A DNA stretch of 64,000 nt, from positions 126 to 64,125 of IMG/VR virus record IMGVR_UViG_3300049491_000829, one strand, 5' to 3'. Origin of the DNA: a virus. Taxonomy: Duplodnaviria > Caudoviricetes. Below, in pieces: positions 419 through 63,351 of the stretch. The translations under genes were made by a program, and so were the position numbers. Within the stretch, counting starts at the first letter, position 1. Each line of letters starts with the position of its first letter. The notes beneath the pieces were generated by a model that ran no database searches, was not told the DNA's origin, and worked only from the letters and a program-made list of their open reading frames with translations.

Positions 419-659
419 GAAATGAAAAAAATTTGCACGACAAAAAACCTTGTAGATACTCATCTGCAAGATTTTGAGTTAGCCAATGCTGTATAGCTTT
501 GTTGCTCAGTTGAGCCAAAAGTTCAAATTATCTGTTTTATCCCCATTAAGGATTAAGCGCGATCGCGAATTGACTTAGGGAAACTTTTCTCTAAGTTGTA
601 GTTTCAACCCAGTCTATTGCAAATGCTTTCCCCTTGTCTGTTTCACCCTTGTTTAAGGA

Positions 660-911
660 TTGAGCGCGATCGCCTCTCTACGAGAATTGACTAAGCAAAA
701 AGTAGAACTTCGACAAGGTAAATTTTTCTTTATCGAAGCCAAAAATACTACTCAAACCTGTCATTGCTGCCAGCAGATATTAACGAAACCTATTTCACCG
801 CAAGAGTCTTTCTACTGCGAAAACTCAAAGTGTGACATGTATAACAAAGAACAGCATCCAGATATTAACGCTGCTAAGTATATTAAATCTTTTGCGATTG
901 ACCAAGTTTGA
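660..911 (+). pseudogene. tnpB: IS200/IS605 TnpB C-terminal zinc-ribbon remnant
   Basis: TTQTCHCC...FYC...C...HPDINAAKYI matches the TnpB Zn ribbon and RuvC-III (D.NAA.NI); most of the protein is missing. Confidence 0.7.
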
Positions 912-1015
912 CTTAGGGAAAAGTTTCTCTAAGTCAAAAAGAAAGCGATCGCGGGTTGAGTCGCGATCGCGTGATGTGTTTGACTAAGGTTAAAGCGAGA
1001 TAGGAAGTTAGATAG

Positions 1016-1480
1016 TTAAACTACGTCGATTGAGACAGTACCAGGTAATCCGATGGTATCGGGAGTTGGATTGATTTCAATTTCATCAATACTATCAGGG
1101 GCAGGAACGGTATCAACTGGCGCAGGTGTAGGAGTTGGTTCCGTAGGCTGTTCTGGTGATGGAACAGTAGGAACAAGTTGCAATACAGCGTCTTTAGCTT
1201 TAGCTACTTGTTCCGTGTTGTTATTGAGAAGCGCGATCGCTTCTTCTATCTGCTGTGTAGAGGCTGCGCCATTTTTTGCGTCTTCCAGAGCTTTGAGGAT
1301 TTGGGGCGCGACACTGTTTACCGCGTCGTGAACACCTGCGATCGCGAGTCCATTTTTTTCGATTGCTTGAAGCAACTGTTTTTGAGTTGTCATGATTAAT
1401 TTTTTAAGATTTTCTACTTCGTTTTTCTTTGGTTTCCGAGACATAAAATCTTTGAACCAGGTTAGTAAAAAAGCAAACAT
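1016..1480 (-). CDS. Hypothetical protein, coiled coil with Pro/Thr-rich tail
   Basis: 154-aa ORF; start uncertain. Confidence 0.55.
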   Translation of the reverse strand: MFAFLLTWFKDFMSRKPKKNEVENLKKLIMTTQKQLLQAIEKNGLAIAGVHDAVNSVAPQILKALEDAKNGAASTQQIEEAIALLNNNTEQVAKAKDAVLQLVPTVPSPEQPTEPTPTPAPVDTVPAPDSIDEIEINPTPDTIGLPGTVSIDVV

Positions 1481-1532
1481 GCGAGTGTTAGTTTTGCTTA
1501 AATGGTAGCATCAATAATAAAAGGAATTCAAC

Positions 1533-1715
1533 ATGTATCAAGAATACAAAGGAATATTGATTGAAATTTATCCAGGACATTGCGACAATGAATCAGAGCA
1601 GTATTTCTGGGCTGCTTTTGGAATTAATTATTTAGGCGATCGCTTTATTTCTCCTGAAGCAGCGCTTTTTGCAGCGATGCAAGACATCGACATTAATCGT
1701 CTAGATTGTACGTAA
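1533..1715 (+). CDS. Small hypothetical protein
   Basis: 60-aa ORF with AAGGA RBS upstream. Confidence 0.5.
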   Translation: MYQEYKGILIEIYPGHCDNESEQYFWAAFGINYLGDRFISPEAALFAAMQDIDINRLDCT

Positions 1716-5264: not shown

Positions 5265-5317
5265 TTCATGTCCTGCAAATATAGTTACTGACTTAGAGAA
5301 ACTTTTCCCTAAGTCAA

Positions 5318-5557
5318 TTACATTAAATCGTTGTCAATATCAACTTTATCAATCTGACTATTAGTTATTTGCGATCGCCCGCTTGATTGAGTTGCTGCCC
5401 CTGCGGCTCCTGTAATCGCTCCTACAGCCATGTTGCTAATTAATCCGAATCTATCTGCTGAAATAGCCTCGCTTTTTAAAATTGCAACTATTGCGATCGC
5501 ACCTCCCATGACTCCTAAAAGTAAGGGTGTAATTGCTCTAATAATCTCGCTGTTCAT
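5318..5557 (-). CDS. Small two-TM membrane protein, holin candidate
   Basis: Two hydrophobic segments and a charged C-terminus. Confidence 0.5.
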   Translation of the reverse strand: MNSEIIRAITPLLLGVMGGAIAIVAILKSEAISADRFGLISNMAVGAITGAAGAATQSSGRSQITNSQIDKVDIDNDLM

Positions 5558-5608
5558 GAGTAAAAACCCGGAATAATATAGATAGTAATTGTGAACTAGT
5601 ATACAAGA

Positions 5609-6406
5609 ATGGATGCTGTTTTTTTGTTAGCGCAAAAGCATTGGCGAATACTTTCAGTTTTAATCCTTTGGTTAAACCTTGCATTTTTTCTACATTTAAT
5701 TGGTAAACGTCTGGAAAAAATCAACAGCGACAAGTTAATTCTATCTTGGTTGTCTGAGATTGGATCGGACATCAGGCTATACGGAATTGTCACGTCGTTA
5801 AGTTTGACTATCGCTTATGCTTCAAGCGTATACAGTAATTATCTTGCTTGGCTGTCCAGACTAAGTTCAGTGCTAGCAAAAGTCAGCGCATTATTTTGGC
5901 TCGTACTCGTCGCGATCGCATTCACTGAAACTGCTGCGCCGCATTTTTCAAGAATTATTACTCGCAGTCAGATGAATCAAATTGACAAACGGAACGCACT
6001 AACTCTCATTCCTTTATCTGCAAGTAGCGCAAAAGTAATAATTTATATTCTTGCTTTTATATTTGGATTGGGAGCATTCGGGGTTGATATATCCCCATTG
6101 CTGAATATGAGTACGGTCGCGATCGCAATATTTGGCTTTGCAGGTGCAGAAACTTTTAAAGATATATTAGCCTCGTTAAAAATTTTTATTGACAGACTTT
6201 ACTACGTCGGTTCAATTGTAGAAGTTAGTACAGATGGACTATGCAAATACGAGGGACAGTTAAAAGGCACAATTACTAAAATTACACTGTTTAATACAAC
6301 TATTCAATTAGAAAAGTCAGCAACTTTTAGTAAGTCGCTGACAGTAGCAAACGGTGCAATCCGAAGTATTATTGTATATCAAGAAAATATCAAGTCACGT
6401 GAATAG
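5609..6406 (+). CDS. MscS-family mechanosensitive channel-like membrane protein
   Basis: Several TMs, then FGVDISPLL...IFGFAGAETFKDILASLKIFIDRLYYVGSIVEV...GTITKITLFNTTI...VANG, the MscS TM3/beta-domain pattern. Confidence 0.75.
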   Translation: MDAVFLLAQKHWRILSVLILWLNLAFFLHLIGKRLEKINSDKLILSWLSEIGSDIRLYGIVTSLSLTIAYASSVYSNYLAWLSRLSSVLAKVSALFWLVLVAIAFTETAAPHFSRIITRSQMNQIDKRNALTLIPLSASSAKVIIYILAFIFGLGAFGVDISPLLNMSTVAIAIFGFAGAETFKDILASLKIFIDRLYYVGSIVEVSTDGLCKYEGQLKGTITKITLFNTTIQLEKSATFSKSLTVANGAIRSIIVYQENIKSRE

Positions 6407-7384
6407 CATGATGTGTTGCAAGACTGCGCGATACAAATTAACTGGTACTGCATTACCTAGCGCTGCACCATCTACTAAGTTTATTCCTGAGAATTGATAC
6501 CAATTAGGCAAAGTTTGCAACCCTGCAACATCCTGAATCGACAGCGATCGCGTTATGCCATTTACCCAAATATCTAAGAAATTTTGACGACTAGCACCTT
6601 TACCATCACTAAACATAGATTTGGTAATTGTAAAACACGGCTCAAATTGATGCCGAATTTTTATTGTGTCGTTACGCTTACCAATTCGTTGAATCAAAAA
6701 CGCTTGAGTTGTCGGATACATTTGCAATTCAACGTCAATATCTTTTTGCTGAGTCGCAGTCAGCTTAGATAGTTTCATTTGCGCTATGCGATCGCCTAAT
6801 ACGCTCCACCAGCCCAAACGAGGACGACGCGCAGGCAATCCCAACACTCGTCCCTCTCTGTCCGCAATTACGATCATTCTCTCTCTGTCCTGCGGTACAT
6901 CATAATCATGGGCGTTTGCGATGCCAAATGTCACCCCATAGCCCAGTTCAATCAAGGCAGTTTTAATCATTTCCCAAGACTGCGATCGCGCATAGCCTGG
7001 GACTTGCTCTAGCGTGAAAAACCTTGGACGCTTTAATTGCAAAAATCTGATTGTTGAATACGCCATTGCAAAGTCCCGTTCTAACTCCATCGCATCAGTT
7101 TTTGCAGCAGAATAATTTTGACAAGGCAGCGAGATATGCCCAATCATTGGCTCATTTTCAATAAATCTAAAATCCAATCTCGCCGCATCTTGAATACTGC
7201 CTCGAAATAAATTGCAGCCGTATTGCTTAAAGTTTTTATCGTGCAAGTCCGCGATCGCGCTACTCAACGCTGGATTTTCTGGATCGAACTCCACTGCATT
7301 TGTATAGTGCAATCCTTCTTCAATAAAGGCTGCACCAATTCCACCACCACCACTGCAAAAATCTATAACACTACTATTTTGCAT
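6395..7384 (-). CDS. C5-cytosine DNA methyltransferase with canonical motif X
   Basis: Motifs I DFCSGGGG, IV LPCQ, VI EQV, VIII QDRER, X LGNAVP. Confidence 0.88.
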   Translation of the reverse strand: MQNSSVIDFCSGGGGIGAAFIEEGLHYTNAVEFDPENPALSSAIADLHDKNFKQYGCNLFRGSIQDAARLDFRFIENEPMIGHISLPCQNYSAAKTDAMELERDFAMAYSTIRFLQLKRPRFFTLEQVPGYARSQSWEMIKTALIELGYGVTFGIANAHDYDVPQDRERMIVIADREGRVLGLPARRPRLGWWSVLGDRIAQMKLSKLTATQQKDIDVELQMYPTTQAFLIQRIGKRNDTIKIRHQFEPCFTITKSMFSDGKGASRQNFLDIWVNGITRSLSIQDVAGLQTLPNWYQFSGINLVDGAALGNAVPVNLYRAVLQHIMLFT

Positions 7385-7407: not shown

Positions 7408-7436
7408 AGTATGTCGCACCTGACATACTATGTCAA
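7408..7436 (-). promoter_or_regulatory. Sigma70-type promoter containing the TATGTC-N6-GACATA operator
   Basis: TTGACA-17-CATACT on the minus strand upstream of the MTase. Confidence 0.75.
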
Positions 7437-7496
7437 TGCATCGCTTGACTTAGAGAAAAGTTTCCCTAAGTCAAATTCAACGTCAAGTTACTGCCG

Positions 7497-10919: not shown

Positions 10920-10959
10920 TGTTTTGTAAATTTTTTACTTAGGGAAACTTTTCCCTAAG

Positions 10960-11895
10960 TCAAGGGCGAGCAAAGCGAAGAAATAATGATATCTGAGCTT
11001 GAATAGATGTTGCAGTAGCTCCGTTCTTGGTTGCTTCAAGTCTAAGAAACCAAGAATTACCAGGCAAGAAGATACTAGGATTTTGGGTTATTCTTCTATA
11101 CGTGATTCCTGTAGCTGGTATATTTTGCGTGTTTTCTGGAAAGCTGTACTCTGTTCCTGAAAACGTCCCAGTACCTAGATAATGTCTGAGTTTAAAGCTG
11201 TAGAAGTTAGTGGAATCATGCGCGATCGCGCCTGTGAGAGTGTTTGAAAGTATCCCAAAAGCATGTTCGATTTTAATGCGATTCCCTGTGTTATTGAAAA
11301 ATGGAACAGCTTTGTTTACGCCAGAGCTTGAGCTAAAACTCGACAGAAAATCAAAAAGGATTGTATTGCTTAACCATAGTTGATTTGCTGCGTCCCATCT
11401 CCAAGGCTGGGGATAGATTGCCCCTGGTTCAAACCAAATAAATCCATTATCAGGATTAACAGGCGCAGAAGCATCATAAGCGATCGCACCTTTAATAATT
11501 TCTGCAACTTTCCCTTTACTATTAATTGAAATTTTTGCAGGATTTTCAAAAATTCCAGGTTCGACAATATCTTCATTTCCTGGGAAAACAATCAAGGGTC
11601 GTTCAATCCCCGTGTAATCGTCTTCATCTGGTAAAAATGGAAAAGCTTCTCGCAGGATTTCAACGTAGTCAAGAAGCTCGGAAAGCTTTAATTCCCTTCC
11701 ATTCGCTTCAACAAACTTCATCCCATGAATCAAATCAAAGATTAGCTTTGCACCAACTGCGGCGATCGCAAGGTATTCGACTGCTGCATCTTCATTTGTT
11801 TCAAGTTCGATAAATCTGTAAAAGGCATTCTCCAAATCAATTTGTTTTTCTGTTGCGACGCTTGCATTGACAAGGGAATTAATTAGATTTTTCAT
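10960..11895 (-). CDS. Tail or baseplate-associated protein
   Basis: APVNPDNGFIWFEP fibre-type motif; likely start MKNLINS. Confidence 0.55.
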   Translation of the reverse strand: MKNLINSLVNASVATEKQIDLENAFYRFIELETNEDAAVEYLAIAAVGAKLIFDLIHGMKFVEANGRELKLSELLDYVEILREAFPFLPDEDDYTGIERPLIVFPGNEDIVEPGIFENPAKISINSKGKVAEIIKGAIAYDASAPVNPDNGFIWFEPGAIYPQPWRWDAANQLWLSNTILFDFLSSFSSSSGVNKAVPFFNNTGNRIKIEHAFGILSNTLTGAIAHDSTNFYSFKLRHYLGTGTFSGTEYSFPENTQNIPATGITYRRITQNPSIFLPGNSWFLRLEATKNGATATSIQAQISLFLRFARP

Positions 11896-12073
11896 TTTTA
11901 ACAACAGGTGCTTTTTTAAATATTGACTCCCCCGTTTGAAACAACAAGTATCTATTAGCAGCTTTGACATCATGTTGAGCAATACTTAAGCATTGCTTTT
12001 TAATCCCAGAATGCTTAGAAGCAAGATGTACTAATAGTTTTTCAATTTCCGATTGAGTCGCTGGTCTACACAT
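11879..12073 (-). CDS. Small hypothetical protein
   Basis: 64-aa ORF filling the gap in the operon. Confidence 0.45.
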   Translation of the reverse strand: MCRPATQSEIEKLLVHLASKHSGIKKQCLSIAQHDVKAANRYLLFQTGESIFKKAPVVKNEKSN

Positions 12074-12077
12074 ATCT

Positions 12078-13208: not shown

Positions 13209-13251
13209 TTCCTCTCACTTTGACTTAGGGAAACTTTTCCCTAAGTGCTTT

Positions 13252-16463: not shown

Positions 16464-16525
16464 TTCAAACTCACTTAGGGAAAAGTTTCCCTAAGTGAAA
16501 AATCAAAATAACTTGGAATTTTAAA

Positions 16526-18459: not shown

Positions 18460-18463
18460 GCAC

Positions 18464-18494: not shown

Positions 18495-18571
18495 TTAAGC
18501 AAAAGGGCATCTATCCAAGCTATAAGCATAGTAAAATTATACTATGCAATCGCACTTAGGGAAAAGTTTCC

Positions 18572-20110
18572 CTAACCACCGATACTAAAACTAGTCGCAG
18601 GTAATCTCTTCGCACTGCGATTTTTCTTTGCATAATACAAAATCAATTGTCCAGCGCTGTCAACTTGGTCATCAGTCGATCCATTGGGGAAAGTTATAAA
18701 TTCCGTTTCAACATCATCTGCAATACTATTATCTGGCAACCAGATATTGCCAGACTCAAAATAAGGCGCGATCGCCCTTGCTCTAATTTCTTTATCATCT
18801 TTGGGAGATATTGCAACTATTCCTGAAAACACTTCTTTCAAATCCTCAATAATGTCTGCACCTGATGCTTTTTTTTCTATCAATTTTCGACTGATAAAGC
18901 CCAGATACGAATACTCTTCAACCATATCTCGAATCATTTGTTTTGTCTCAGAAAAGCCGCAGCGCTTGCGTTTTTGATGAATCAAGTAAAAATTAGGATA
19001 TGCGATCGCCCATAGTTGCACAACGACATAAGACGCGGTTTTACTTGTGGAGCCAAACGACGGATCGACTGATATTGCTAATTCATATTTACCAGGCAGA
19101 TTCTGCCATTTTTGCCATTTTGCTAGTGAGAAAATACCCCCTTCCAATGGTGCAGGTTCCTGATCGTGCCTGCCAGAGTACATATACGCACCTAGCTTTT
19201 GTCTGGCTGAGTCGTCTTCTTCCTTCCCAAATCTATCAGGATGTAAATAGGGTCCAAGCATCTCTTTTATCTCGTTCCCGTCTTTGTCTCGGAAAATTGC
19301 ACTTTCTGGCGATCGCTCTATTGTTCTACCACTACGAGGAAATACAATTGTTTCTGTTTTCTCACAGCGCGTTGGTAGTTTGATTAATTTCCACTTTGGA
19401 GCGTCAGGACTTGATAGCTCATAACCTGAGATGTCGTCTTGGTGGGTGCGCTGCTGCACTATAATAATTGCTGTCGTTTTAGGATCGTTCTGTCGGGTTG
19501 TGCTGTAATCCTTCCACTTTTTCTTGCAGCCTTCGCGAATTACGTCTGACTCTACTTTCTCCGGATTGTTTAAGTCATCACCAATAATTCTTAATGCGCC
19601 AACCCCCGTGACGCTTCCATCTGCACCACGGGCGTACATCAAGCCTTGGGAATTATTACTAAATTCCTTAACTCGATTGCGATCGTCGCTCAATATGCAT
19701 TGCTTCTGCGACAACTGCTGATACCATGCGGAACCAACTACTTGTCTACGCTTGTAACTGTGTTCTTGTGCCAAGTCGCTGGAGTAGGACATACAAAGAT
19801 ACGACATACTAGGCGATCGCAACCATTCCCATGCAGGGAAAAACACGCTCACTATCAAAGACTTGAGCGATCGCGGCATGACGTTAATAATTAATCTCTT
19901 ATTCCTTCCTTCTGCGATTTCCTCCAATTCTTCGCAAATCAATTCGTGATGCCAATTCCACTTCAACGGCGTAGCTGGCTCCAAGATTCTCCAAGCTTCA
20001 AAACAAAACTCTATCAGCGATCGCTTGCAAAGTTCATTCCGCAAATCTAGCTCTTTCTCAATCTCTTTTTGTCTCTCATTGGCATCGCGAATCGTTGCTA
20101 CTGTTACCAT
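18572..20110 (-). CDS. terL: Terminase large subunit
   Basis: RLIINVMPRSLKS, IIGDDL, QQRTHQDD, SVDPS, IEKKASG, FPNGSTDDQVDS. Confidence 0.95.
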   Translation of the reverse strand: MVTVATIRDANERQKEIEKELDLRNELCKRSLIEFCFEAWRILEPATPLKWNWHHELICEELEEIAEGRNKRLIINVMPRSLKSLIVSVFFPAWEWLRSPSMSYLCMSYSSDLAQEHSYKRRQVVGSAWYQQLSQKQCILSDDRNRVKEFSNNSQGLMYARGADGSVTGVGALRIIGDDLNNPEKVESDVIREGCKKKWKDYSTTRQNDPKTTAIIIVQQRTHQDDISGYELSSPDAPKWKLIKLPTRCEKTETIVFPRSGRTIERSPESAIFRDKDGNEIKEMLGPYLHPDRFGKEEDDSARQKLGAYMYSGRHDQEPAPLEGGIFSLAKWQKWQNLPGKYELAISVDPSFGSTSKTASYVVVQLWAIAYPNFYLIHQKRKRCGFSETKQMIRDMVEEYSYLGFISRKLIEKKASGADIIEDLKEVFSGIVAISPKDDKEIRARAIAPYFESGNIWLPDNSIADDVETEFITFPNGSTDDQVDSAGQLILYYAKKNRSAKRLPATSFSIGG

Positions 20111-20664: not shown

Positions 20665-20753
20665 TTTAATTCCTCTCACTTAGGGAAACTTTTCCCTAAG
20701 TTACCACTAAATATAATATCTCTTATTATCTCAAATAGAATACTTCTCAGCCA

Positions 20754-21961: not shown

Positions 21962-22016
21962 CTATTTTTCACTTAGGGAAAAGTTTCTCTAAGCTGATTC
22001 ACAGAAAAATATAGGG

Positions 22017-23032: not shown

Positions 23033-23782
23033 TCATTTGATAGCAATCCACGCAGCAAATTGACCCCAACGCCAGATGCATTCACTTTGCACAAATCCTG
23101 TATATCTTAAACTTTCTTCATTTTGAAAAGCAGTCCAAGGCACTAGAACCCCTTCTAAGCTTAAGCGTTTGCGCTGTATCTCATATTCTGTGTAGCCATT
23201 TTCAAATTTTAAAGAATAATAAACCTTTGTCAAAATATCATCAATATCAGCCGTTTTTGCTAAAGTTTTCTCTACAAGGATAAAAGCGCCGCCACGATTC
23301 AAGCTTCGATAAATCCGGCGCAATAATTGCAAGCGATACTCCACAGGGATGAATTGCAGCGTCAGGACAGACATTACAACGCTATTCTGCCCTTGGGGAA
23401 AATCAACCCGCAAATCTAAATTATCAATGCTAACGCGATCGCGTACATCTTTGAATCGCTCCTGACATACTTTTATCATTGCGTCGCTACGATCTATCAT
23501 CTTATATCTAATATCGGGTTGCAATCGCGACAGCAATCTAGCGATTGTCTCACCCCTGCTACAACCTAAGTCTAAAATTGCACCCTTGTTTGTCGCAAAA
23601 TTAACAGCGAATTCTACGACAAGCGATCGCATCACATCATAATCAGGGATCGAACGCTGTAACATCTCTTCAAATACATCCGCTACTTGCTCGTTAAACT
23701 CCCAATTACTTGGCATCGCGATCGCTTCAGGAGTATTTTGCAGTTGGGGAAACGTTTCCCTAAGTGGATTCTCGTTTTGCAT
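23033..23782 (-). CDS. cmoA: Carboxy-S-adenosylmethionine synthase, CmoA-like
   Basis: WEFNEQVADVFEEMLQRSIPDY, LDLGCSRG, LTLQFI, ILVEK, GYTEYEIQRKRLSLEGV match CmoA, including the KR motif. Confidence 0.88.
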   Translation of the reverse strand: MQNENPLRETFPQLQNTPEAIAMPSNWEFNEQVADVFEEMLQRSIPDYDVMRSLVVEFAVNFATNKGAILDLGCSRGETIARLLSRLQPDIRYKMIDRSDAMIKVCQERFKDVRDRVSIDNLDLRVDFPQGQNSVVMSVLTLQFIPVEYRLQLLRRIYRSLNRGGAFILVEKTLAKTADIDDILTKVYYSLKFENGYTEYEIQRKRLSLEGVLVPWTAFQNEESLRYTGFVQSECIWRWGQFAAWIAIK

Positions 23783-25597: not shown

Positions 25598-26104
25598 TTA
25601 CTTCTTTGGAGTCGTAAATTGATATTTGCACTTGGGACAAGTCACATCAAGCTCAGACGCGATCGCATCCGGGTCAATTTCTGTGAAGTCTTGCGGGAAT
25701 TCTTCACTCATCAATGCATCAATCTCATCTTGAGAAAATCCAGTCAATTCTAAATCAGCTTCCAAATCAATCAAAGATTGAAGCTCAAATTTTAGCGCTT
25801 CATCATCCCAAGGCGATTGCGCTAACTTATTGTCAGAGATTCGCAATTGTGTTTTTTGCGCGTCCGATAATCCTGTACGGACAATTACAGCAACTTCTTC
25901 CAACTCAGCAACGATCGCAGCTTCTCTCCTGCAATGCCCTTTTAAAATGTTGTTGTTCTCATCAACAACAATCGGTACATCAAAACCAAGCGTTTTCATC
26001 ACTTCCGCTAACTTCTCAATCTGCTGTCTGCTATGGATTTTAGCGTTTTGCTCGTAAGGGATTAGAGCGTTTGGCGATCGCATCTCAATATTTAAATTAC
26101 TCAA
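25598..26104 (-). CDS. ParB/Srx N-terminal domain protein with C-terminal CxxC
   Basis: LIPYEQNAKIHS, GFDVPIVVD, GHCRREAA, RISDNK, CPKC. Confidence 0.85.
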   Translation of the reverse strand: MSNLNIEMRSPNALIPYEQNAKIHSRQQIEKLAEVMKTLGFDVPIVVDENNNILKGHCRREAAIVAELEEVAVIVRTGLSDAQKTQLRISDNKLAQSPWDDEALKFELQSLIDLEADLELTGFSQDEIDALMSEEFPQDFTEIDPDAIASELDVTCPKCKYQFTTPKK

Positions 26105-26105: not shown

Positions 26106-26768
26106 TTACTCAGTCCTTGTTGGTAAACTGTAATATTTTGTATGATACCTTTTCTGCTCGATCCAAGCGTTGATTAAACCTTGTTGATGCATTTTTGAAC
26201 ATATCTTACGAATTGTTGTTTTATTTAACTTTGCTTCATTCGCTAATTCTTCAGTCGTCAAAGGTCTTTTGTACTCAGACAGCAAATTTAATATTATTTT
26301 TTCAGTTTCTAAACCAAATTTATCTATTAACTTTTCTTTTTCTCCCGCAAGACAATAATACAATTTTGAACCCCTGTCACGTCGATAACTCTCAATTTTA
26401 CCTGCTGCAATCAACGCATCACAATGAAATAAAGCTGTTTGGGGCGATCGCTCAATAGCAGGAGCAATATCATAAACACTCAAAGGTTCTTTAGCAAGTA
26501 ATCCTAATATTATTGCGCGATGTTTCTCGTTAACAAAAGGTCTAACAGCTTCGCGCTTTTGCTTGACTTTCCTGCGTTTAATCACTTCTGGCTTTTCACG
26601 CTGTTCCTGGACAAGCTTAGTTTTGTCAATGCCTCGACTAATGATTAAAAAATTTCCACAGGCAGAGCAAAAGTTATTACTTTCTTCCTCGCAAATACAG
26701 TAAATTTGGCGAAATTTTAAGCATCGACCGCAGTATTTAAAAATAGATTTTTCCCAAACAAGTTGCAT
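26106..26768 (-). CDS. Zinc ribbon plus tandem winged-helix DNA-binding protein
   Basis: CGRC...CSAC and two wHTH-like segments. Confidence 0.65.
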   Translation of the reverse strand: MQLVWEKSIFKYCGRCLKFRQIYCICEEESNNFCSACGNFLIISRGIDKTKLVQEQREKPEVIKRRKVKQKREAVRPFVNEKHRAIILGLLAKEPLSVYDIAPAIERSPQTALFHCDALIAAGKIESYRRDRGSKLYYCLAGEKEKLIDKFGLETEKIILNLLSEYKRPLTTEELANEAKLNKTTIRKICSKMHQQGLINAWIEQKRYHTKYYSLPTRTE

Positions 26769-26839
26769 TTTATTCTTCCCTTGAACTTGTCTTAATTTAA
26801 AAGCACTTAGGGAAACGTTTCTCTAAGTCCAAAAACAGT

Positions 26840-29442: not shown

Positions 29443-29536
29443 GGGCATAAGCATCAGAATATTCAATACAAAGGAAAAATGACTTAGAGAAACTTTTCCC
29501 TAAGTCATTTAAGCGGAGATTTATTGTATGCAAGCT

Positions 29537-30456: not shown

Positions 30457-30501
30457 TGTAGTTTTTACTTAGTTGCACTTAGGGAAAAGTTTCCCTAAGT
30501 C

Positions 30502-32875: not shown

Positions 32876-33203
32876 TCGATTACTCCTGTTTTGGTTGACG
32901 GGTTCTGTTGATTAGTCTGTCTTGTTCAAAAAAATTCATTTAATTACTACGGGAGGTCGGAACGCGATCGCCCGTTTTGTCTTTTTAGAAAGCTTTCCAC
33001 AAGATACAGCATTTTGCAAGTAACCCTTTTTTCTACTTAGGGAAAAGTTTCTCTAAGTCCGTATCGTGGATTATCTCACATATCTATGTTATACAGCAAA
33101 TTAAATTATGTGCAACTTTTGACATACAAAATTGATTTCCAAACAAACGTAGCGGTGGACATTTAAGGTATCCACCGCTAGCAAAATAAGGATGCATTTT
33201 TAA

Positions 33204-35038: not shown

Positions 35039-35088
35039 AACTGACAATACTATTTTTTACCTGCGACTTAGAGAAACTTTTCTCTAAG

Positions 35089-35241
35089 TCATTTTTGTGT
35101 GTTTTTACTCTCCAAAAATTTGTCAATAAGCGTGACTATTAAATTATTGACGCTTCTGTTGTCCGCGATCGCGCAACGTTTCAACTGTTCTAATTTCTCA
35201 GGTTCGACGTAAACAACAACTTTAGGCTTTTTACTAGGCAT
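35089..35241 (-). CDS. Arc/CopG ribbon-helix-helix repressor
   Basis: MPSKKPKVVVYVEPEKLEQLKRCAIADNRSVNNLIVTLI. Confidence 0.8.
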   Translation of the reverse strand: MPSKKPKVVVYVEPEKLEQLKRCAIADNRSVNNLIVTLIDKFLESKNTQK

Positions 35242-36809: not shown

Positions 36810-36980
36810 GACTACGCGATCGTTGTAAAGCGGTGTTTTTAACACATCGCTGATAGGACAGCAACCAAGTTCGATGCTTGGGCGATCGCTTTAGCGGCAT
36901 CCTTGATGTATCGCTTTCACTTAGAGAAACTTTTCCCTAAGTCACTATACGAGATTTTATAAATACAGGTCATCATTATT

Positions 36981-41426: not shown

Positions 41427-41518
41427 CAAAAAAAAAACAAGCGATCGCTCAAAATCCCCAATAAATAAGCACTTAGAGAAACTTTTCCCTAAGTGCTTAT
41501 TTTTTTTCTTCTCACTCC

Positions 41519-43636: not shown

Positions 43637-43768
43637 ATTGTTACCAGATTGTTTTTGCCATTTTAAAGCACTTAGAGAAACTTTTCCCTAAGTGAGATAA
43701 ACTCTCATCCATAGATAACCCCATCAAAAAACCAAGAAAAGCATTTGCAGATTCGCAGTTCTCAACCC

Positions 43769-43869: not shown

Positions 43870-44676
43870 ATGCAGACACTCAAGCAACAAATAGAAGCAA
43901 AGTTAATCGAAACAAAAGAAGCTACAGACGACAAGGCGATCGCGGAATTCATCAAGTCCCGATTCGGCAAACTTTCTAGCAAAGAAGGCAAAGCAAGCGC
44001 GATCGCATGGTTGGAACAGTGTCAGGTCGAAGATTGTAGAGAGCAAGTGTTTATCGAAGCAAGCGAACACTTTGACGAGGTTGAATGCTTGCAAGCGCCT
44101 GAAAGCTGCGACGTGCTTGACGCTCAATCTCCTTGGTACGGTGCAACTTGCTCAATCCTTGAACCACTTAACAATAACGTTTTGGAAAGCAGACTGTATA
44201 TCGACTGGGCTACAAATCGCATTGAATGTCTTGCGTCAACTTACGACAACAACGCATACTATCCGCAGGGTGTTTTAATTTTTGACATGCTGTCTGAAAA
44301 AGTCTGGTCAATGCCCGATATCTCAGCAACTCAACAATTTATCAGCGATCGCCGTTACTGGCTAATCTGGAAAGCGAAATATACTGAAGCAATTGCAAGC
44401 ATTGAACCCAAGCAAAAAGTAACCCCTGTCAGCAAAGAAGTTACCTCAAATCCTGCAATCATTGGAATCGCGATCGCGTTACTCGTTGTCGAAGCTTACA
44501 GATTTGCAGTTGCCGCGATGCTGCCAGTTATTGCGATCGCCTTTAGCAAGCTGCAAACAATGCTGACGGCTCAAAGACTCGCAGATAAAGGCTTTGCAGC
44601 CGCAGCAAAATTCTCTAAGTTTGCTGCATCGCTCCAAATTCCGCACTTAGGGAAAAGTTTCTCTAAGTTCGTATAG
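43870..44676 (+). CDS. Hypothetical early protein
   Basis: 268-aa ORF downstream of a promoter. Confidence 0.6.
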   Translation: MQTLKQQIEAKLIETKEATDDKAIAEFIKSRFGKLSSKEGKASAIAWLEQCQVEDCREQVFIEASEHFDEVECLQAPESCDVLDAQSPWYGATCSILEPLNNNVLESRLYIDWATNRIECLASTYDNNAYYPQGVLIFDMLSEKVWSMPDISATQQFISDRRYWLIWKAKYTEAIASIEPKQKVTPVSKEVTSNPAIIGIAIALLVVEAYRFAVAAMLPVIAIAFSKLQTMLTAQRLADKGFAAAAKFSKFAASLQIPHLGKSFSKFV

Positions 44677-45920: not shown

Positions 45921-45922
45921 TT

Positions 45923-46296: not shown

Positions 46297-46674
46297 ATGA
46301 TTATTTCTTTCTCTCTGACTACAAAAATTGCCAAAGAAAAAGGTGTTCCCGATCCAATCCTCGCAGGCGTTAAAACTTGCACGAGACGTAATTGGTCAGA
46401 AAAACAAGCTGAAAAATGGCTCAACGCTTATCACAAAGGCGATCGCATTCATCAAGCATGGTCTAACAATCCTTACGTCAAAGGAGCTTACAAGCTTGCA
46501 GACATTGAAGTAACAGCAGAACCTTATCAAGAACCGCTTAACTTGATGTCTGAGCAAGATTTATTTTGTGAAGGGAATCTATGGGAGTCCAAAAGCGATT
46601 TTATGCAACTGTTTGAATCTCCAAACTGTTTAGTCTGGGTTCTACGTTTTTCACTTAGGGAAAAGTTTCTCTAA
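46297..46674 (+). CDS. ASCH-domain protein
   Basis: ILAGVKTCTRR (GxKxxTxR), DLFCEG, VWVLRF. Confidence 0.78.
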   Translation: MIISFSLTTKIAKEKGVPDPILAGVKTCTRRNWSEKQAEKWLNAYHKGDRIHQAWSNNPYVKGAYKLADIEVTAEPYQEPLNLMSEQDLFCEGNLWESKSDFMQLFESPNCLVWVLRFSLREKFL

Positions 46675-46729
46675 GTGATTGTGCGTAATGTCGCTTGATT
46701 TTGCAGATAGTTAAGAAAAATAAACAAAA

Positions 46730-47035
46730 ATGGAAAGCAAAAAAGAAGAAGTTATTAAGTTCTGGAAAAGCGGCAAAACCAGGCAAGAGATAAAGGAAAT
46801 GTTGGGTATCTCTCTAAAAACAATTTCAATTTATCTCAATAGCGATCGCGAGTACAGGCAAATTAAGGATAGAGAGAGAATTGCAAGGGAATGTTTGTAC
46901 GAGGAAATATTTGAGATTTGGCGATCGCAGTCGAAGAAAAATATTTCCAAAATAGCTCGCATATTTAATTTATCAAGGCAACGAACCCAGCAAATCTTAG
47001 GAAGATACAAGGAGTACAGAGATTATGGAGATTAA
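46730..47035 (+). CDS. Tandem HTH DNA-binding protein
   Basis: GKTRQEIKEMLGISLKTISIYL and NISKIARIFNLSRQRTQQIL. Confidence 0.75.
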   Translation: MESKKEEVIKFWKSGKTRQEIKEMLGISLKTISIYLNSDREYRQIKDRERIARECLYEEIFEIWRSQSKKNISKIARIFNLSRQRTQQILGRYKEYRDYGD

Positions 47036-48312: not shown

Positions 48313-48900
48313 GTGGATGTCGCAGCGCAATCTAAGTTACGATCCGTTGCCGCGTTTAGCTTAAACAGAAGAAGCCTCACATCTGTACTGTAATCAGTCA
48401 GTGTGAGATGAATTCGAGGCAAAATCGAAACATTGTCTTTATTGATTTTCTGCACAGCAGGAACAGAGAAAGATAATAGTTGAGATTTTGCCAAAATATT
48501 TCATGATTTGCTATAATCATCTTGGTTAACTTCGCCCGTATTGGTGTCTGATAAGCCTCTACCCAGTAGCATTGCGACTATTGGTAAGCGACTCCGTTGC
48601 ACAGCATAAAAGAAGTAGGCACATCTTGATTAATATGAATTACCTTTGGGTTTGTCCTATAGTGCGAACAAGCCAGCATCTCATCCAGGACAGTAAAATT
48701 CGTAGGGTACAAGGTAAGAATTACATAGTCTGCGGAGGGGCTTCTCGTGGACTTAAAACAAAGCTCAGTCAATGTCTTCATAGAAGAGTCGCTGAGAAGC
48801 CTACACTGTATGCTTGCATCAGTGTAGGAGTATGTCACTCTAATTCCCAAAATTAAATATTCTCGCTTTGACTTAGGGAAAAGTTTCTCTAAGTCCTTTT

Positions 48901-52617: not shown

Positions 52618-53063
52618 CTTGTCACCTCTGGCGATACTTCAACCCAACCTTCAAGAATCCGCAACACGTTACCTTCTGGCGATTCAAGCTCTAGATCGTA
52701 AACCCAAATATTTCTGCCTGGGATTGCTTGTTCTCTTTCACTTGTGCGAACTTTCATTTTAGCTGCTAGCCAGTTTAATACCTTTGTTTGCGCTTGCGAT
52801 AGAAAGGGTTTGACTATTGTTCCTGTTGCGTTGCCTCCAGTTGATAAAGCAGCACTACCCAAAATTAAAGGAGCAAAAGAAAACGTTGCTTTCACTATTC
52901 CCCCTTCTTCTGCATAGCGATCGCGTATTTGTCCGCGTGGTGTCCATCTTGTAAAATCTCCCTCAATTACAATTGTCAACCAGTCAAATGTTATGCCTTG
53001 TTCGATTGCATAACGATTTGGATAATTATCAATATTTGTTAGATGGAAAATTGCCGAACTCAT
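52614..53063 (-). CDS. BppU-like tail/baseplate protein
   Basis: IEQGITF...VYDLELESP.G.V.RILEG.V.VSPEVTR. Confidence 0.65.
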   Translation of the reverse strand: MSSAIFHLTNIDNYPNRYAIEQGITFDWLTIVIEGDFTRWTPRGQIRDRYAEEGGIVKATFSFAPLILGSAALSTGGNATGTIVKPFLSQAQTKVLNWLAAKMKVRTSEREQAIPGRNIWVYDLELESPEGNVLRILEGWVEVSPEVTR

Positions 53064-53101
53064 AAAACCTCAGAGTTGACTTAGAGAAAAGTTTCCCTAA
53101 G

Positions 53102-53623
53102 TCATTGGATTAGTTGATCGAGGGGTACTCTTAAAAGCGTAAAACTAATTAAACATCCTGCAAGACTGCCATCAGGATACCAGTCTTGCTCTGTTCTTTG
53201 AAAGCGAGTCATGACGCATGGAGAATGCGATCGCGCACCCCAGACAAAAGCGAGTACAGGCGGTGCTTTTCCTTTTTCCACAGGCTTAAGGAATGCTGCA
53301 AGCTCATCAATATACTTTTCAATAAGCCTTGCTTGTCGTCTAGCAGGCTCGTCATTTTTGTTTGCTGGACTAATTATACTCCTTCCAGATATAGGTAAGT
53401 TGTTAATTGATAAAGTAAGATTCTCATTATTTCGCCATTGAACAAATTGCATTTCTGTAGCTGGAGAATTTGCAGTTGCATAGTTTGCAGCCGTTTCGTA
53501 GTTGATTTCAGTTGGCTGCAATAGAAACTTCCAGGAGCCTTTGCCATCTAAGCGCGAAATACCCGCGTAAGTTGCTTTGACTCGCTGAATAGTTGGCAAT
53601 GTTTTAATGACTTCTGGATTCAT
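53102..53623 (-). CDS. Contractile-tail tube initiator (CIS tube-like)
   Basis: FLLQPTEI, APPVLAFVWG, CVMT, PDGS; follows the tape measure gene. Confidence 0.72.
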   Translation of the reverse strand: MNPEVIKTLPTIQRVKATYAGISRLDGKGSWKFLLQPTEINYETAANYATANSPATEMQFVQWRNNENLTLSINNLPISGRSIISPANKNDEPARRQARLIEKYIDELAAFLKPVEKGKAPPVLAFVWGARSHSPCVMTRFQRTEQDWYPDGSLAGCLISFTLLRVPLDQLIQ

Positions 53624-55532: not shown

Positions 55533-55558
55533 AACTAATCACTTAGAGAAACTTTTCC

Positions 55559-56092
55559 CTAAGTCGTGAATTGGATTTGCAAGTAACACCAACAGGGTAA
55601 AAAGTTTTTTGCGAGTTTTTCTACCAAAGAGCGATCGCTCGTATTGGGTGCGTAGCTAGGCGGGACTTGGATTATCCAAGAAAAAGGGTCACTCCCCAAA
55701 GGATTATTAAGCCTTGTTACGCCCAAAATAAATCCGCTACTAGGAACTAAAGACGCATTTAAATTAAAAAGTTGAAACAGAAAAGGTAATATTTTTTTGT
55801 TGCCTCGATTTCTCCAGATGTAATCAGTGTTTGCCAAAAGCGATCGCTTGACATCTACTTGCCAGGATGCGTCCCATAAATCGCCCCAACCACCCCAACG
55901 CGCAAGCATGTCGAGCCATTCAGGAAAACAAGTCTCAGGCTCTAATCTATCTGTTTCGTAGTAAGCAAGAAGAACGCTCCAAAATTGGAATCCTTCATCA
56001 ATCCCTGCTGTTAGGGCATTTGCAATTTCTTCCATCTCGCTGCGATCGCGATAACATTTAGGTAAACTATTAACGATCAAGTTTTCACTCAT
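55559..56092 (-). CDS. Baseplate wedge protein, P2 gpI-like
   Basis: PETCFPEWLDMLARW.GW...KRSLL...WRNRG. Confidence 0.8.
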   Translation of the reverse strand: MSENLIVNSLPKCYRDRSEMEEIANALTAGIDEGFQFWSVLLAYYETDRLEPETCFPEWLDMLARWGGWGDLWDASWQVDVKRSLLANTDYIWRNRGNKKILPFLFQLFNLNASLVPSSGFILGVTRLNNPLGSDPFSWIIQVPPSYAPNTSDRSLVEKLAKNFLPCWCYLQIQFTT

Positions 56093-57363: not shown

Positions 57364-57410
57364 TTTTTTATTCCTACTTTAGGACTTAGGGAAACTTTTC
57401 CCTAAGTTGT

Positions 57411-59931: not shown

Positions 59932-59963
59932 AGTTTGGGGACTTAGAGAAACTTTTCCCTAAG

Positions 59964-60359
59964 TCAAGGTGGTGAAACATTTTTGATTAAAGTCATAGAC
60001 CCCATTACGTATTTAGTTGTTTTGGGTGTGTATGATTCCTGACCAAGTGGGGCAATTAAATTAAACGCTAAGTCCTGCGATCGCTGCATCTCTTGAAGCA
60101 TTGCGATCGCAGGAGAAAAATCATTTAACTCAGTTTTGTGATGCTTTTTGATGCGGAAGCTATCAGGATTTTGCTGAATATATCGCATTGCAGCAATGTA
60201 AACACGATAAACTTTTATTCCCGATTTGAAACTTCCCGCAGTTGCTTCTAGAAGCTCGTTGATAAAGTCAAGATGTGCAGGATTAAAAACTTCCTGTACA
60301 CAAGGAATCTGCTCAAACTTCCGCAAAGCATCATCAATGTCCAAAGGAAGCTCAATCAT
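59964..60359 (-). CDS. Head-tail adaptor candidate
   Basis: Helical 131 aa downstream of the capsid gene. Confidence 0.5.
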   Translation of the reverse strand: MIELPLDIDDALRKFEQIPCVQEVFNPAHLDFINELLEATAGSFKSGIKVYRVYIAAMRYIQQNPDSFRIKKHHKTELNDFSPAIAMLQEMQRSQDLAFNLIAPLGQESYTPKTTKYVMGSMTLIKNVSPP

Positions 60360-60686: not shown

Positions 60687-61880
60687 TTACGCTGGTCTAT
60701 AAACTTTAAGAACAAAGAATGCATCAGGAGCAGTTAAAACAGGCAAACACATCTCGAACGCTTCTGCATACAAACTTTCAGGATAGCGATCGGCTGCAAC
60801 TACAGCATTCATAAATCGACCGATGCGAGTTTGACCAAGCACTCGTCCAACTCCCATGTAACCAAGGGTATTTGCAAGATTGACTTTTCCTAAAGAAAGA
60901 GGGATATCAATCTGTAAACTTTGTTTGGTCTTGCAAGTAATAATAACAGGGTCATAACCAGGTCTATCTAAATAGCCAGTTCGCTGAATATTTCTACTTG
61001 CATCGCGATAGTTGTAACCCTTGTTGTATTGCTTCCAACCCGGCAGCCCTTGACGTGCTAGCAATCCTTGGATAGCAGTTTCGTCAACGTTGGAAGACAA
61101 AGAAGAAATCTGACTATTTTGCAGAATTACTGCATTATTGAATCGCGTTTTGATTGATGCATTATCCATAAATGCAGCAAACGCAATGTAATTTGAATAA
61201 ATGCCCTGTAAGTCGTATCCTTTATCTGCTGCAAGCTTTTTAACAGTTCTAAAATCTGTGATTGGATCGTAACTGCCGTCTTGCTTGTACCATCCAGCAG
61301 GAGATGCGATCGTACCTCCTGAAATATTTAAGCGCTGTCCAGCATTTGCGTAAACAACAGTTTCAGCGTAGCCGTTTACACCTTTTCTTTGTACTTGCCC
61401 ATCAATTAGAGATTGAGCGCGATACAGTTCCTTTAAGTCATCCAAAGGGCTAAGAATGCGTTGGTCAATCCAACGTATAACTTCAGCAGCAGCGCGGATA
61501 TCGCGCAAATTGCTTCCATCTGTGGACAATTGCAAAATGTCCATAATATTTTCATACGTAGCCGCGTCGATTTCGTCAGCTTGGTTAATTACGCCAAAGT
61601 TGACATCAAAGAACCCCATGATTTGTCCACCAGGGTTGATAATAGCGGGTGAGTAATTTGTGCCCGCGTTACCAATTACCCGACGATAGGTAATTTGTCC
61701 CTCAGTGTACATATTCTTGGGCTTCTGCTGGTCAGGTATTAACTCCGCAAGCATGTAAGGAGAATCATCGGGTCCGAATTGACTCATGGGATTTAGAACC
61801 ATTTTGTCAATGTCGGAATAACCGTCTTTGCCAGGAGTTTTCAGGGATTTTACGACATCCCCTAATGTTGCCATTGCCAT
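60687..61880 (-). CDS. Major capsid protein
   Basis: 397 aa after scaffold and decoration genes; ELYRAQSLIDG, YDPITDF, LPVLTAPDA.F.LKV capsid-E-like features. Confidence 0.8.
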   Translation of the reverse strand: MAMATLGDVVKSLKTPGKDGYSDIDKMVLNPMSQFGPDDSPYMLAELIPDQQKPKNMYTEGQITYRRVIGNAGTNYSPAIINPGGQIMGFFDVNFGVINQADEIDAATYENIMDILQLSTDGSNLRDIRAAAEVIRWIDQRILSPLDDLKELYRAQSLIDGQVQRKGVNGYAETVVYANAGQRLNISGGTIASPAGWYKQDGSYDPITDFRTVKKLAADKGYDLQGIYSNYIAFAAFMDNASIKTRFNNAVILQNSQISSLSSNVDETAIQGLLARQGLPGWKQYNKGYNYRDASRNIQRTGYLDRPGYDPVIITCKTKQSLQIDIPLSLGKVNLANTLGYMGVGRVLGQTRIGRFMNAVVAADRYPESLYAEAFEMCLPVLTAPDAFFVLKVYRPA

Positions 61881-61916
61881 AAAATTATTTACCTATTAAG
61901 GATGCAAACTAATTTA

Positions 61917-62537
61917 TTAGTCGATGAATTGATACCAGTTTTCGAGTTTGGCTTTAGTTGCAGCGTTCAAAGCTGCATAGTTTCGCAAACCAGCCCGAAA
62001 GACCATTGCACCATGTCTTAAGAGGGTAATTTCTGGAATTGTGCCAACATCAAAGTTATCAAAAGCATTGATGTAATAATCATCCATTGCATCGTTAGCA
62101 AGTTTAAATGGTAAATTTGCTACTCTGTCAGCACCCGTCCTGCCTATTAAAGTGCCACTGTACAAAGATTTATATCCGACTCCTGCATACGTAGCTACGT
62201 CATTTGCAGCCAACGCAGCCGCGATCGCGCTTACAGTCAAAGCTGTATCGCCTTCTTTTGCTTCTGCTGTAAGGGTTGCAAATTTAGCACCTCCGAAAGT
62301 AAGAATTGTCCCAGAGGGGATTTTGTCACCTTTTGCGATCGCACTCAGCAAAGGAATTGAAGTTGCTGCAACTGCTGCGCCTGCTGCGCCAACTGTAATT
62401 TTTACACCATCGACAGCTATTAACGTGCTTGCATCAAAGTTAACACCACCTGGAATAGTGTTTCTGTAATCAATTGGCTCTGCTGCCCAGTTAGCATCAT
62501 TAACTGTTGTAATCGGGCTATATCGTTGTCTTGCCAT
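61917..62537 (-). CDS. Head decoration protein
   Basis: IPSGT, YSGTLIGR, LLRHG.V; directly upstream of the capsid gene. Confidence 0.65.
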   Translation of the reverse strand: MARQRYSPITTVNDANWAAEPIDYRNTIPGGVNFDASTLIAVDGVKITVGAAGAAVAATSIPLLSAIAKGDKIPSGTILTFGGAKFATLTAEAKEGDTALTVSAIAAALAANDVATYAGVGYKSLYSGTLIGRTGADRVANLPFKLANDAMDDYYINAFDNFDVGTIPEITLLRHGAMVFRAGLRNYAALNAATKAKLENWYQFID

Positions 62538-62608
62538 TTAAAAACCCTCGCGGTTGACTGTTAAATCTCACCACCAGGGTTATCGATTATTTGTTTTTAG
62601 CTCACCAT

Positions 62609-63289
62609 CTAGGTTGTTGCTTTGTTGAACCTTCCATAGTTTGCAGCAATGTAACTGCTAGCTTGCGAAGTCGGAGAAGTCGGAGAATTACTACTGCTCC
62701 CAGTTGGTAAAGGCGATCGCGTTTCCTGTTGTTGAGTACCTGACTCTGAGGGAAATAACGCTCGTCGTTTCCAGCCCTCTATCCGTTCCAAAAACTCGCT
62801 AAAGGCAACTTCTTTGTTGTCTTTGTCCTTAATCGTAACATTATCATCTTTAATAATTACGTTCTCTACTGCAATATCACTAAAAATACTTGCGAACGCT
62901 TCATAGTCAGCACCCGTTTTTGCTGCAACATCTCGGAAATGGCGATCGCGTTCATACTTCACAGACAATGCTTTCAAATCGTCCAATTCCTTAATTGTCG
63001 CGTCACTATTTGTTTTTAATTCGTCTCGCTCCTTTGTTAATGCTTCGACTTGCGATCGCAGTTCTTTCAACAACTTATCAACGTCTTCGTCACTTCCCGC
63101 AGCATCCTTAAACCTTTGCAAAGTTGCTTCAGCTTCTCGCAACTTCCTTCTATACTCCTTCTCTCCATTTCCAATACTTGCAGAGTGAGCCTGGACAGCT
63201 TCAAAAGCGTCTGTCCCATTTTCTTGCTTTTTTATCCATTCCAACGCTTCTGCGTAACTCATTGGCATATAATTTTCTCCTAGTTTCAC
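62609..63289 (-). CDS. Capsid scaffolding protein
   Basis: Coiled coil with low-complexity C-terminus; upstream of head genes. Confidence 0.65.
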   Translation of the reverse strand: MKLGENYMPMSYAEALEWIKKQENGTDAFEAVQAHSASIGNGEKEYRRKLREAEATLQRFKDAAGSDEDVDKLLKELRSQVEALTKERDELKTNSDATIKELDDLKALSVKYERDRHFRDVAAKTGADYEAFASIFSDIAVENVIIKDDNVTIKDKDNKEVAFSEFLERIEGWKRRALFPSESGTQQQETRSPLPTGSSSNSPTSPTSQASSYIAANYGRFNKATT

Positions 63290-63351
63290 TTAGAGAAACT
63301 TTTCCCTAAGTGGCATGATTTAAATAACACGTTTCTCCAAGCTCTTTAATT

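Follow-up and report, generated by a model that had tools for sequence, protein, structure and literature searches.

A near-invariant palindrome spaced evenly at gene ends along a 64-kb cyanobacterial myophage fragment, tentatively read as a genome-wide set of operators

Why should one 24-bp palindrome recur 27 times along a stretch of phage DNA, at or close to the end of a gene each time? The DNA in question (hereafter the window, 64,000 nucleotides) is a 64-kb fragment of an uncultured cyanobacterial myophage, namely bases 126-64125 of the linear IMG/VR record IMGVR_UViG_3300049491_000829 (64,125 bases). The palindrome, ACTTAGRGAAA-NN-TTTCYCTAAGT (pattern ACTTAGRGAAANNTTTCYCTAAGT), is matched exactly 24 times and, with up to 3 mismatches, 27 times, against a mean of 0.00-0.01 matches in dinucleotide-preserving shuffles. 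An earlier note on this DNA had described about 27 copies with 11-bp arms and a 2-bp centre (AG or CT, twice CG), and this holds, as 24 exact and 3 imperfect copies. The answer that we favour, tentatively, is that the palindromes may be duplex-DNA operators, distributed genome-wide, for a single phage-encoded symmetric dimer, and may work as roadblocks, insulators or nucleation sites. Among the options that the earlier note had offered, protein-binding sites or silencing roadblocks would thus remain the best.

Across the 27 copies, variation is confined to position 7 (R), its mirror position 18 (Y) and the 2-bp centre, bar a total of 5 mismatches over the 22 fixed positions. These mismatches belong to three imperfect copies, at 18554 (2 mismatches), 21971 (1) and 23742 (2), and those of the degenerate copies are located in the portions that overlap coding sequence. 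The centre is CT in 14 copies, AG in 11 and CG in two (23742 and 26805). The bases at positions 7 and 18 combine as G..C in 8 copies, A..T in one, G..T in 8 and A..C in 10; 18 of the 27 combinations are therefore non-Watson-Crick, and there are zero compensatory changes. This uncompensated R/Y variation fits contact with a purine-tolerant protein, and not a hairpin: conservation acts on sequence rather than on structure. The spacer between the arms is constant at 2 bp, and no lone half-sites occur in the window. The bases just outside the arms are mirror-biased as well (position -1, T 16 and G 9; position 0, C 14 and G 11; position +25, C 14 and G 7; position +26, A 13 and C 8), in the form K-S ... 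S-M, so that the whole element is a 28-bp dyad whose symmetry is weak in its outer bases. No second motif was found to be enriched in the 60-nt flanks of the sites. The copies, listed without strand and by configuration (A-CT-C, for instance, has G-AG-T as its reverse complement), are the following.

573..596: G-CT-T, exact match; intergenic, upstream of a TnpB remnant
911..934: G-AG-T; convergent junction; shares one base with 660-911, the final base of whose TGA stop is also the first of the palindrome
5291..5314: A-CT-C; two minus-strand genes on either side
7448..7471: A-AG-C; promoter-like TTGACA-17-CATACT 11 nt off, minus strand
10937..10960: G-CT-C; adjoins the stop of 10960-11982
13223..13246: G-CT-C; upstream of the Baseplate_J start; synteny breakpoint against the relative G001
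16473..16496: G-AG-C; two plus-strand genes on either side
18554..18577: degenerate, 2 mismatches, both in the last TerL codons; convergent junction, with a conventional terminator at 18468-18492
20678..20701: G-CT-C; divergent junction between TerS and a DUF932 gene
21971..21994: 1 mismatch; followed by a conventional terminator at 22014-22047
23742..23765: degenerate, 2 mismatches, CG centre; in the first codons of methyltransferase 23033-23782 and the end of 23760-24257
26805..26828: G-CG-T; between a terminator at 26839-26867 and the start, 36 nt away, of a tandem winged-helix gene
29482..29505: A-CT-C, exact match
30477..30500: G-AG-C, exact match
33035..33058: G-AG-T; lies upstream of the gene for the O-like replication initiator, with a terminator at 33150-33180 in the same gap
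35066..35089: A-CT-T; T-run after it
36919..36942: A-CT-C, exact match
41471..41494: A-CT-C; terminator-like, with the stem extended to 20 bp and A and T runs on its flanks; follows the partition genes
43670..43693: A-CT-C; divergent junction beside ThyX
44645..44668: G-AG-T; within the final 32 nt of 43870-44676
46653..46676: G-AG-T; encodes the last codons and stop of 46297-46674; 53 nt upstream of a gene with two helix-turn-helix (HTH) motifs
48871..48894: G-AG-T; convergent junction, plus-strand T-run
53079..53102: A-AG-C; synteny breakpoint against G001; adjoins the tube-like gene at its stop
55541..55564: A-CT-C; occupies a 26-nt gap, overlapping the stop of 55559-56092
57384..57407: G-CT-C; junction of the sheath gene and the next gene; palindrome absent at the same G001 junction
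59941..59964: A-CT-C; adjoins the stop of 59964-60359
63288..63311: A-CT-C; divergent junction

Where the earlier note had placed the copies mostly at gene junctions, we found every one of the 27 at a gene end or at most 41 nt from one, in a set of 81 open reading frames (ORFs) chosen by hand from a mechanical ORF list and covering 90% of the window. Fifteen copies lie wholly between genes. Another nine run 1-6 nt into a gene end: at six of these (911, 10937, 18554, 53079, 55541 and 59941) the end is a stop codon, supplied or abutted by the palindrome or its TG flank, and at three it is an uncertain start. The other three lie within coding sequence, at most 41 nt from the gene end (23742, 44645 and 46653). 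Among the junctions, sites occupy 13 of the 44 minus-minus and 7 of the 24 plus-plus ones, and half of the six convergent and of the six divergent ones (3 each). Gaps of 26 nt or more number 42; 24 of these carry a site, and many occupied gaps consist of the site, room for a ribosome-binding site and little else. Several individual placements had been named before. The TerL label of 18572-20110 fits, with copy 18554 at its stop, and copy 44645 does lie in the end of 43870-44676. A copy is likewise present in the first codons of 23033-23782, although the name cmoA given to this gene finds matches only among generic S-adenosylmethionine (SAM)-methyltransferase families, and in the last codons and stop of 46297-46674, although no Pfam family at E<=0.01 backs the name ASCH. 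The gpI-like label of 55559-56092 fits, but the match to P2 gpI is weak and below the cut-off.

The copies are also evenly spaced. Successive copies lie 338-4552 bp apart (mean 2412 bp, coefficient of variation (CV) 0.417 for the 27 copies), and the largest gap agrees with the earlier figure of about 4.5 kb. Uniform placement gives a mean CV of 0.95, and none of 20,000 simulations was as low as observed. If 27 of the 81 junctions are drawn at random, the CV is 0.89, with none of 50,000 draws as low (P<2e-5), and a largest gap of 4552 bp or less has P=0.002 under the same null. When the draw is restricted to gaps of at least 26 nt the CV is 0.76 (P=2.4e-4), a null that is partly circular because many such gaps owe their existence to the site. 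The even spacing proposed earlier is thus real, and goes beyond what gene structure alone would give.

Nor is the orientation of the sites tied to transcription. At the 20 co-directional junctions, the pair at positions 7 and 18 read in the sense direction is G.U in 9 cases, G-C in 6, A.C in 4 and A-U in one (P=0.27), and the loop centre is AG in 11, CU in 7 and CG in two (AG vs CU, P=0.48). Promoter-like sequences do not adjoin most sites, and over positions 1-60000 neither promoter-like nor terminator-like sequences are more numerous than in shuffles. The presence of sites in all junction types, together with their even spread, makes a genome-wide function likelier than the control of a single promoter, as the earlier note had reasonably supposed. 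Two promoter-like sites with identical hexamers, TTGACA-17-CATACT at 7408-7436 (minus strand) and 20754-20782 (plus strand), lie 11 nt and 52 nt from copies 7448 and 20678, respectively, and could be a small class of site-adjacent promoters.

The motif is specific to the phage and, an unsequenced host aside, no sequenced lineage has it as a host repeat. In IMG/VR, zero contigs besides the record of the window contain it, and the representative genomes of 185,579 prokaryote species gave two single matches, both in unrelated Firmicutes, a Lachnospiraceae metagenome-assembled genome and an Enterococcus; this disposes of the common chromosomal repeat that the earlier note had considered. The same phage is present in contigs of three public runs from two studies, one of the runs possibly being the source of the window DNA itself. 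The pieces listed on 26001-46000 are identical, and the contigs bridge sites 29482 and 30477 unaltered. Joints and loose ends at sites in these contigs were considered as traces of recombination and rejected, being 24-31-nt cross-matches between copies.

The only relative found, G001, is a record of 69,790 bases, labelled provirus and 82% complete, with homologues of 23 of the 81 window proteins (23-75% identity). It has no ACTTAG arms. It has a family of its own, 11 hairpins of the form (G)GACGGATA - loop of 3-12 nt - TATCCGTC(C), mostly flanked by A and T runs, with the stem GGACGGATA/TATCCGTCC (for example 25808-25824 and 38948-38969), and the 8-mer of these hairpins has six lone copies per strand, against about one expected by arithmetic. 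Relatives of TerL in IMG/VR do not exceed 36% identity. No repeated palindrome family was seen in 80 loci around distant TerL relatives, nor in the initial 50 kb of Nostoc phage N1 (65 kb in all), and megablast of window positions 26000-46000 gave no match among GenBank phages. Literature searches by the arm sequences and on intergenic palindrome repeats of cyanophages returned nothing related or pertinent among the matches listed.

Which protein might read such a site? Recognisable helix-turn-helix proteins are few in the record, and three genes deserve mention.

26106..26768, minus strand: main candidate binder, 220 amino acids, with a zinc ribbon, a basic linker and two predicted winged-helix domains
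46730..47035, plus strand: second candidate binder, 101 amino acids, with two predicted HTH motifs (Pfam HTH_23 7.5e-8, HTH_28, HTH_7)
25598..26104, minus strand: ParB N-terminal-domain protein with a C-terminal zinc ribbon (ParB_N 9.3e-5; phrog_620 9.3e-46)

The most likely binder, judging from its predicted domains, would be the protein encoded by 26106-26768 (Pfam HTH_5 1.2e-9, HTH_24 and HTH_20; zinc ribbon CxxC...CxxC), and one copy lies just upstream of the start of its gene. Both candidate regulators have a site in their own upstream region, and 46730-47035 is located 53 nt downstream of copy 46653. The ParB_N protein is encoded by the next gene after the winged-helix gene, and one might speculate that it is a partner of the binder. 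The ParB_N domains of 25598-26104 and of 26888-29377 come without an HTH, the adjacent winged helix being on a separate polypeptide.

Under the operator reading, each 11-13-bp half-site would be read by the two DNA-binding domains of one subunit. Recognition would take place at the level of sequence, accepting either purine at one position, ignoring the centre and being indifferent to strand, and it would require both arms at their fixed distance. The bound protein would then block or insulate transcription from both directions at the boundaries of gene modules, and one possible role of such a roadblock would be the silencing of an extrachromosomal prophage. Alternatively, binding might nucleate a nucleoprotein structure or a protein that spreads along the DNA.

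Several observations weigh against this proposal. The record is rated 65% complete, and the absent part, about 35% of the genome, could encode the true actor. The winged-helix protein finds a single real homologue in a set of 1.8 billion representatives, the 46% identical protein of G001; related-locus searches with it and two remote homologues found nothing, and tblastn against GenBank phages gave no match. Its single-sequence structure prediction is poor (predicted local distance difference test, pLDDT, 45.6), and its neighbours in the structure Atlas are generic tandem winged-helix proteins only (TM <=0.52). G001 keeps the winged-helix homologue, yet its repeats are terminator-like hairpins whose loops of 3-12 nt would be unreadable by a rigid dimer on duplex DNA, and it is without homologues of the ParB_N (25598-26104) and double-HTH (46730-47035) proteins. 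Finally, the orientation of the centre is linked to the asymmetry of the arms, with 14 copies in configuration A-CT-C (or its reverse complement) against 3 in the mirror configuration (P=0.013), and the perfect-arm copies are clustered, five of the eight being consecutive at 10937-20678 (P=0.014). Independent selection of symmetric operators does not predict such linkage and clustering, which point to a master from which copies were made or to an asymmetry of function. One G001 hairpin stands directly after the gene of the winged-helix homologue.

An unlikely alternative, though the one that survives best, is that the element acts in RNA: once transcribed it would fold into a 10-bp hairpin and, where modules meet, terminate, pause, process or stabilise polycistronic messages, possibly being read by a sequence-specific RNA-binding protein or nuclease. 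Every copy is predicted to form a 10-bp hairpin on either strand (-7 to -23 kcal/mol), and the sites stand close behind the upstream stop codon, sparing room for the next ribosome-binding site. The excess of G.U over A.C on the sense strand (9 vs 4) runs in the direction expected for RNA, and so also counts against duplex operators, but is not significant (P=0.27). The 11 terminator-like hairpins of G001 share a common stem sequence, and copy 41471 is a textbook bidirectional terminator. A sense-direction T-run (at least 5 T in the 9 nt past the stem), however, is seen at about 5 of the 27 sites and is lacking at about 22, so that the family as a whole does not qualify as intrinsic terminators. 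Three sites are at divergent junctions, and four gaps have a separate conventional terminator besides the site (18468-18492, 22014-22047, 26839-26867 and 33150-33180), which argues that the palindrome itself is not the terminator. A hairpin does not require strict identity at 22 positions. It would also be expected to show compensatory changes, of which there are none, and four sense-strand copies carry an A.C mismatch. The loop is AG or CU without rule, and no Rfam family was matched in the window. The RNA-processing hairpins listed in the earlier note are weakened by this non-compensatory variation and by the absence of a strand rule. Ordinary terminators unrelated in sequence to the palindrome, some of them bidirectional with A and T runs, occur elsewhere too, as at 42826-42858; the phage thus uses ordinary terminators beside the palindrome family.

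It is quite unlikely that the palindrome is selfish or spread by recombination and without function for the phage, as a repetitive extragenic palindrome (REP)-like or miniature inverted-repeat transposable element (MITE)-like sequence or by gene conversion, perhaps merely as a linker in module exchange. The dominance of one configuration and the shared arm variant of neighbouring copies do resemble descent from a master copy. Gaps with a site exceed a normal tight junction by about 24-28 nt, some genes have their last codons or stop rewritten by the site, and the two closest copies (573 and 911) bracket a TnpB C-terminal remnant. Comparison with G001 adds that the orthologous sheath-tube junction has a site in the window and none in G001, and that two synteny breakpoints fall exactly on sites. 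At 5353-7198 of G001, Baseplate_J (12078-13208) and 52614-53063 have their homologues side by side in divergent orientation, the arrangement expected from an inversion between copies 13223 and 53079. Breakpoints at single junctions, where neighbouring window genes have homologues that lie apart in G001, have a site in 2 of 4 cases (13223 and 53079) and adjacencies conserved in G001 in 2 of 9 (55541 and 57384), both being small counts.

Insertion at random junctions nevertheless fails to yield the observed evenness (P<2e-5), and there is a single drifted position across 27 copies. Flanking direct repeats, as left by target duplication, are absent at 26 of the 27 sites (the exception is site 573). 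A six-frame search of the whole record (about 65% complete) and of G001 found no Phage_integrase, Resolvase or Y1_Tnp (PF01797) domain, hence no Y1 transposase, no serine recombinase and, as the earlier note had said, no tyrosine recombinase. There are no doublets, zero copies were found in the other virus contigs or cyanobacterial genomes searched, and the contigs of the second study have the same site content. REP sequences with their REP-associated tyrosine transposases (RAYT), the end hairpins of IS200/IS605 and the PeSL cassettes of T4 are short imperfect palindromes or stem-loop cassettes that recur between genes, in which stem mismatch is typical and which can mediate rearrangement or shuffle modules. 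The window family differs from the first two in having no cognate Y1 (HUH) transposase, doublets or host copies, and from the T4 cassettes in being far shorter and without an attached promoter motif.

The TnpB-like remnant is the sole transposon trace in the record. It consists of the 83 C-terminal amino acids (660-911; Cas12f1-like_TNB, 1.3e-9), with the zinc ribbon and the last RuvC motif, and sits exactly between copies 573 and 911. Its first ~50 nt are partially duplicated next to it, about 40 nt of its 5' region recurring just upstream of copy 573, and GAATTGACTAAG within it resembles a palindrome flank plus the start of an arm.

A more elaborate proposal, which we regard as improbable, is that the palindromes are evenly spaced sites of loading or nucleation from which the winged-helix reader and the neighbouring ParB N-domain proteins (CTP-switch-like) spread or slide to coat the genome. 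With about 2.4 kb between sites, and at most 4.6 kb, a short-range clamp or filament could cover an episome of about 100 kb, for silencing, compaction or protection from host nucleases, as a KorB/ParB-like system in split parts. The conserved inverted repeats (CIRs) of the phiC31 repressor and the OB sites of RK2 KorB are precedents for a dozen or more palindromic operators across a replicon that answer to one regulator. KorB is of the ParB family, and the CIR and OB sites are of 13-17 bp and are not reported to be evenly spaced. They are also fewer than the 27 of the window. The ParB N-domain proteins of the phage adjoin the candidate binder, but no full ParB or KorB with an HTH is recognisable in the record.

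Very improbable, in our judgement, is that the sites are crossover or cleavage points of a site-specific enzyme, that is, recombination or nuclease targets. Their anatomy is suggestive, with 11-13-bp arms and an A/T tract beside a 2-bp non-palindromic centre (CT or AG in 25 of 27), since serine-invertase sites of the hix and gix type have inverted half-sites of about 12 bp around an asymmetric 2-bp centre. The 101-amino-acid protein of 46730-47035 weakly matches the resolvase helix-turn-helix family HTH_7 (5.2e-5) and a DNA-invertase phrog (1.4e-4), and the inversion-like difference from G001 lies at sites 13223 and 53079. The layout of a serine-recombinase site is thus present, but the encoded enzyme is not, PF00239 being absent in six frames and no Resolvase or integrase catalytic domain being found in the record. 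Moreover, with 27 sites facing both ways, the genome would be scrambled or deleted, and one arrangement is seen in contigs of three runs from two studies, with 0 differences in the listed pieces, a weak test for isomers as contigs drop rare variants. The nicking and packaging signals of the earlier note found no support, and a CRISPR array is ruled out, the palindromes being 338-4552 bp apart with genes between them, vs direct repeats with spacers of 25-50 bp.

The nearest described counterpart of the palindrome is the dyad repeat of the Cluster O mycobacteriophages, an analogue and not a homologue. These phages, with genomes of about 70 kb, carry more than 30 copies of a 17-bp repeat, 5'-TGTTCGGNNNCCGAACA, for which the authors predicted dimeric binding proteins and which the 2015 paper describes as of unknown function (PMC4351075). 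The resemblance extends to invariant inverted arms around a variable, asymmetric centre, to some 30 copies genome-wide, few of them near promoters and with an orientation unlinked to transcription, and to the presence of ParB-like domain proteins with no integrase (PMC4351075). There is no sequence similarity, the arms are of 7 bp there and of 11-13 bp here, and about a third of the Cluster O sites are described as inside genes and as denser at one end of the genome, whereas those of the window are within 41 nt of a gene end and even (PMC4351075). The host phylum differs as well.

The comparison that the earlier note had drawn, with the stoperators of mycobacteriophage L5, fails on asymmetry and on orientation. 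Stoperators of Cluster A, read by L5 gp71, are described as asymmetric 13-bp sites that a monomer binds. They are oriented strictly with transcription and lose their effect when reversed; the repressor, with two DNA-binding domains per subunit, halts elongating RNA polymerase (PMC9283540). The window sites are 24-28-bp palindromes and orientation-free. The likeness lies in more than 20 copies (27 here) in short intergenic spaces of early and late genes, and in a reader with two DNA-binding domains (PMC9283540), for which 26106-26768 is a candidate in the window. New features are how long and nearly invariant the site is, that it is placed strictly at gene ends, that its spacing is demonstrably even, and the host group.

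Dispersed operator-like repeats are known in a few actinobacteriophage groups, with a worked-out mechanism for stoperators only, and the palindromic marking of an entire viral genome is rarely seen. The cyanophage offers a cleaner case, with a long, almost invariant site that is strictly at gene boundaries and statistically even. If the evenness does reflect coverage by a spreading protein, it would represent a new principle of viral genome management. Whether or not it does, the pair of site and protein could be put to use in cyanobacteria as an orthogonal roadblock or insulator.

Structural and packaging genes comprise TerL (18572-20110), TerS, a portal (weak), the sheath, a tube-like protein, Baseplate_J (12078-13208) and the P2 gpI-like protein (weak), and an O-like replication initiator, ThyX and a 2-oxoglutarate (2OG)-Fe(II) oxygenase are also recognisable. 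Among 50,697 GenBank phage records the tail sheath matches 15 cyanophage records only (at most 30% identity), including the Anabaena and Nostoc phages Elbi, N1 and A-1(L). The sequence GCGATCGC, which we take to be HIP1, a palindrome typical of cyanobacteria, occurs 180 times in the 64-kb window and 144 times in G001; its abundance points to a HIP1-rich cyanobacterial host. No tRNA was found in the window by ARAGORN. The load of DNA-modification genes is unusual, and these and the partition gene are listed below.

6395-7384 and 24257-25258: C5-cytosine methylases
23033-23782: SAM methyltransferase, generic SAM-methyltransferase families
26888-29377: ParB_N-Dam fusion
39844-40932: ParM-like partition protein (phrog_691, E=6.8e-14)

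Upstream of 39367-39711 and of the partition gene, a 343-nt gap is occupied by an iteron cluster (39050-39315) of about 16 copies of an 8-9-bp CGTCCCA / TGGGACG repeat in both orientations, which contains a 128-bp duplicated block and from which the ACTTAG site is absent. The cluster looks like a parC-type centromere or an origin. Together with the partition gene it suggests that the prophage is kept in the manner of a plasmid, a state for which silencing of the whole genome would be sensible.

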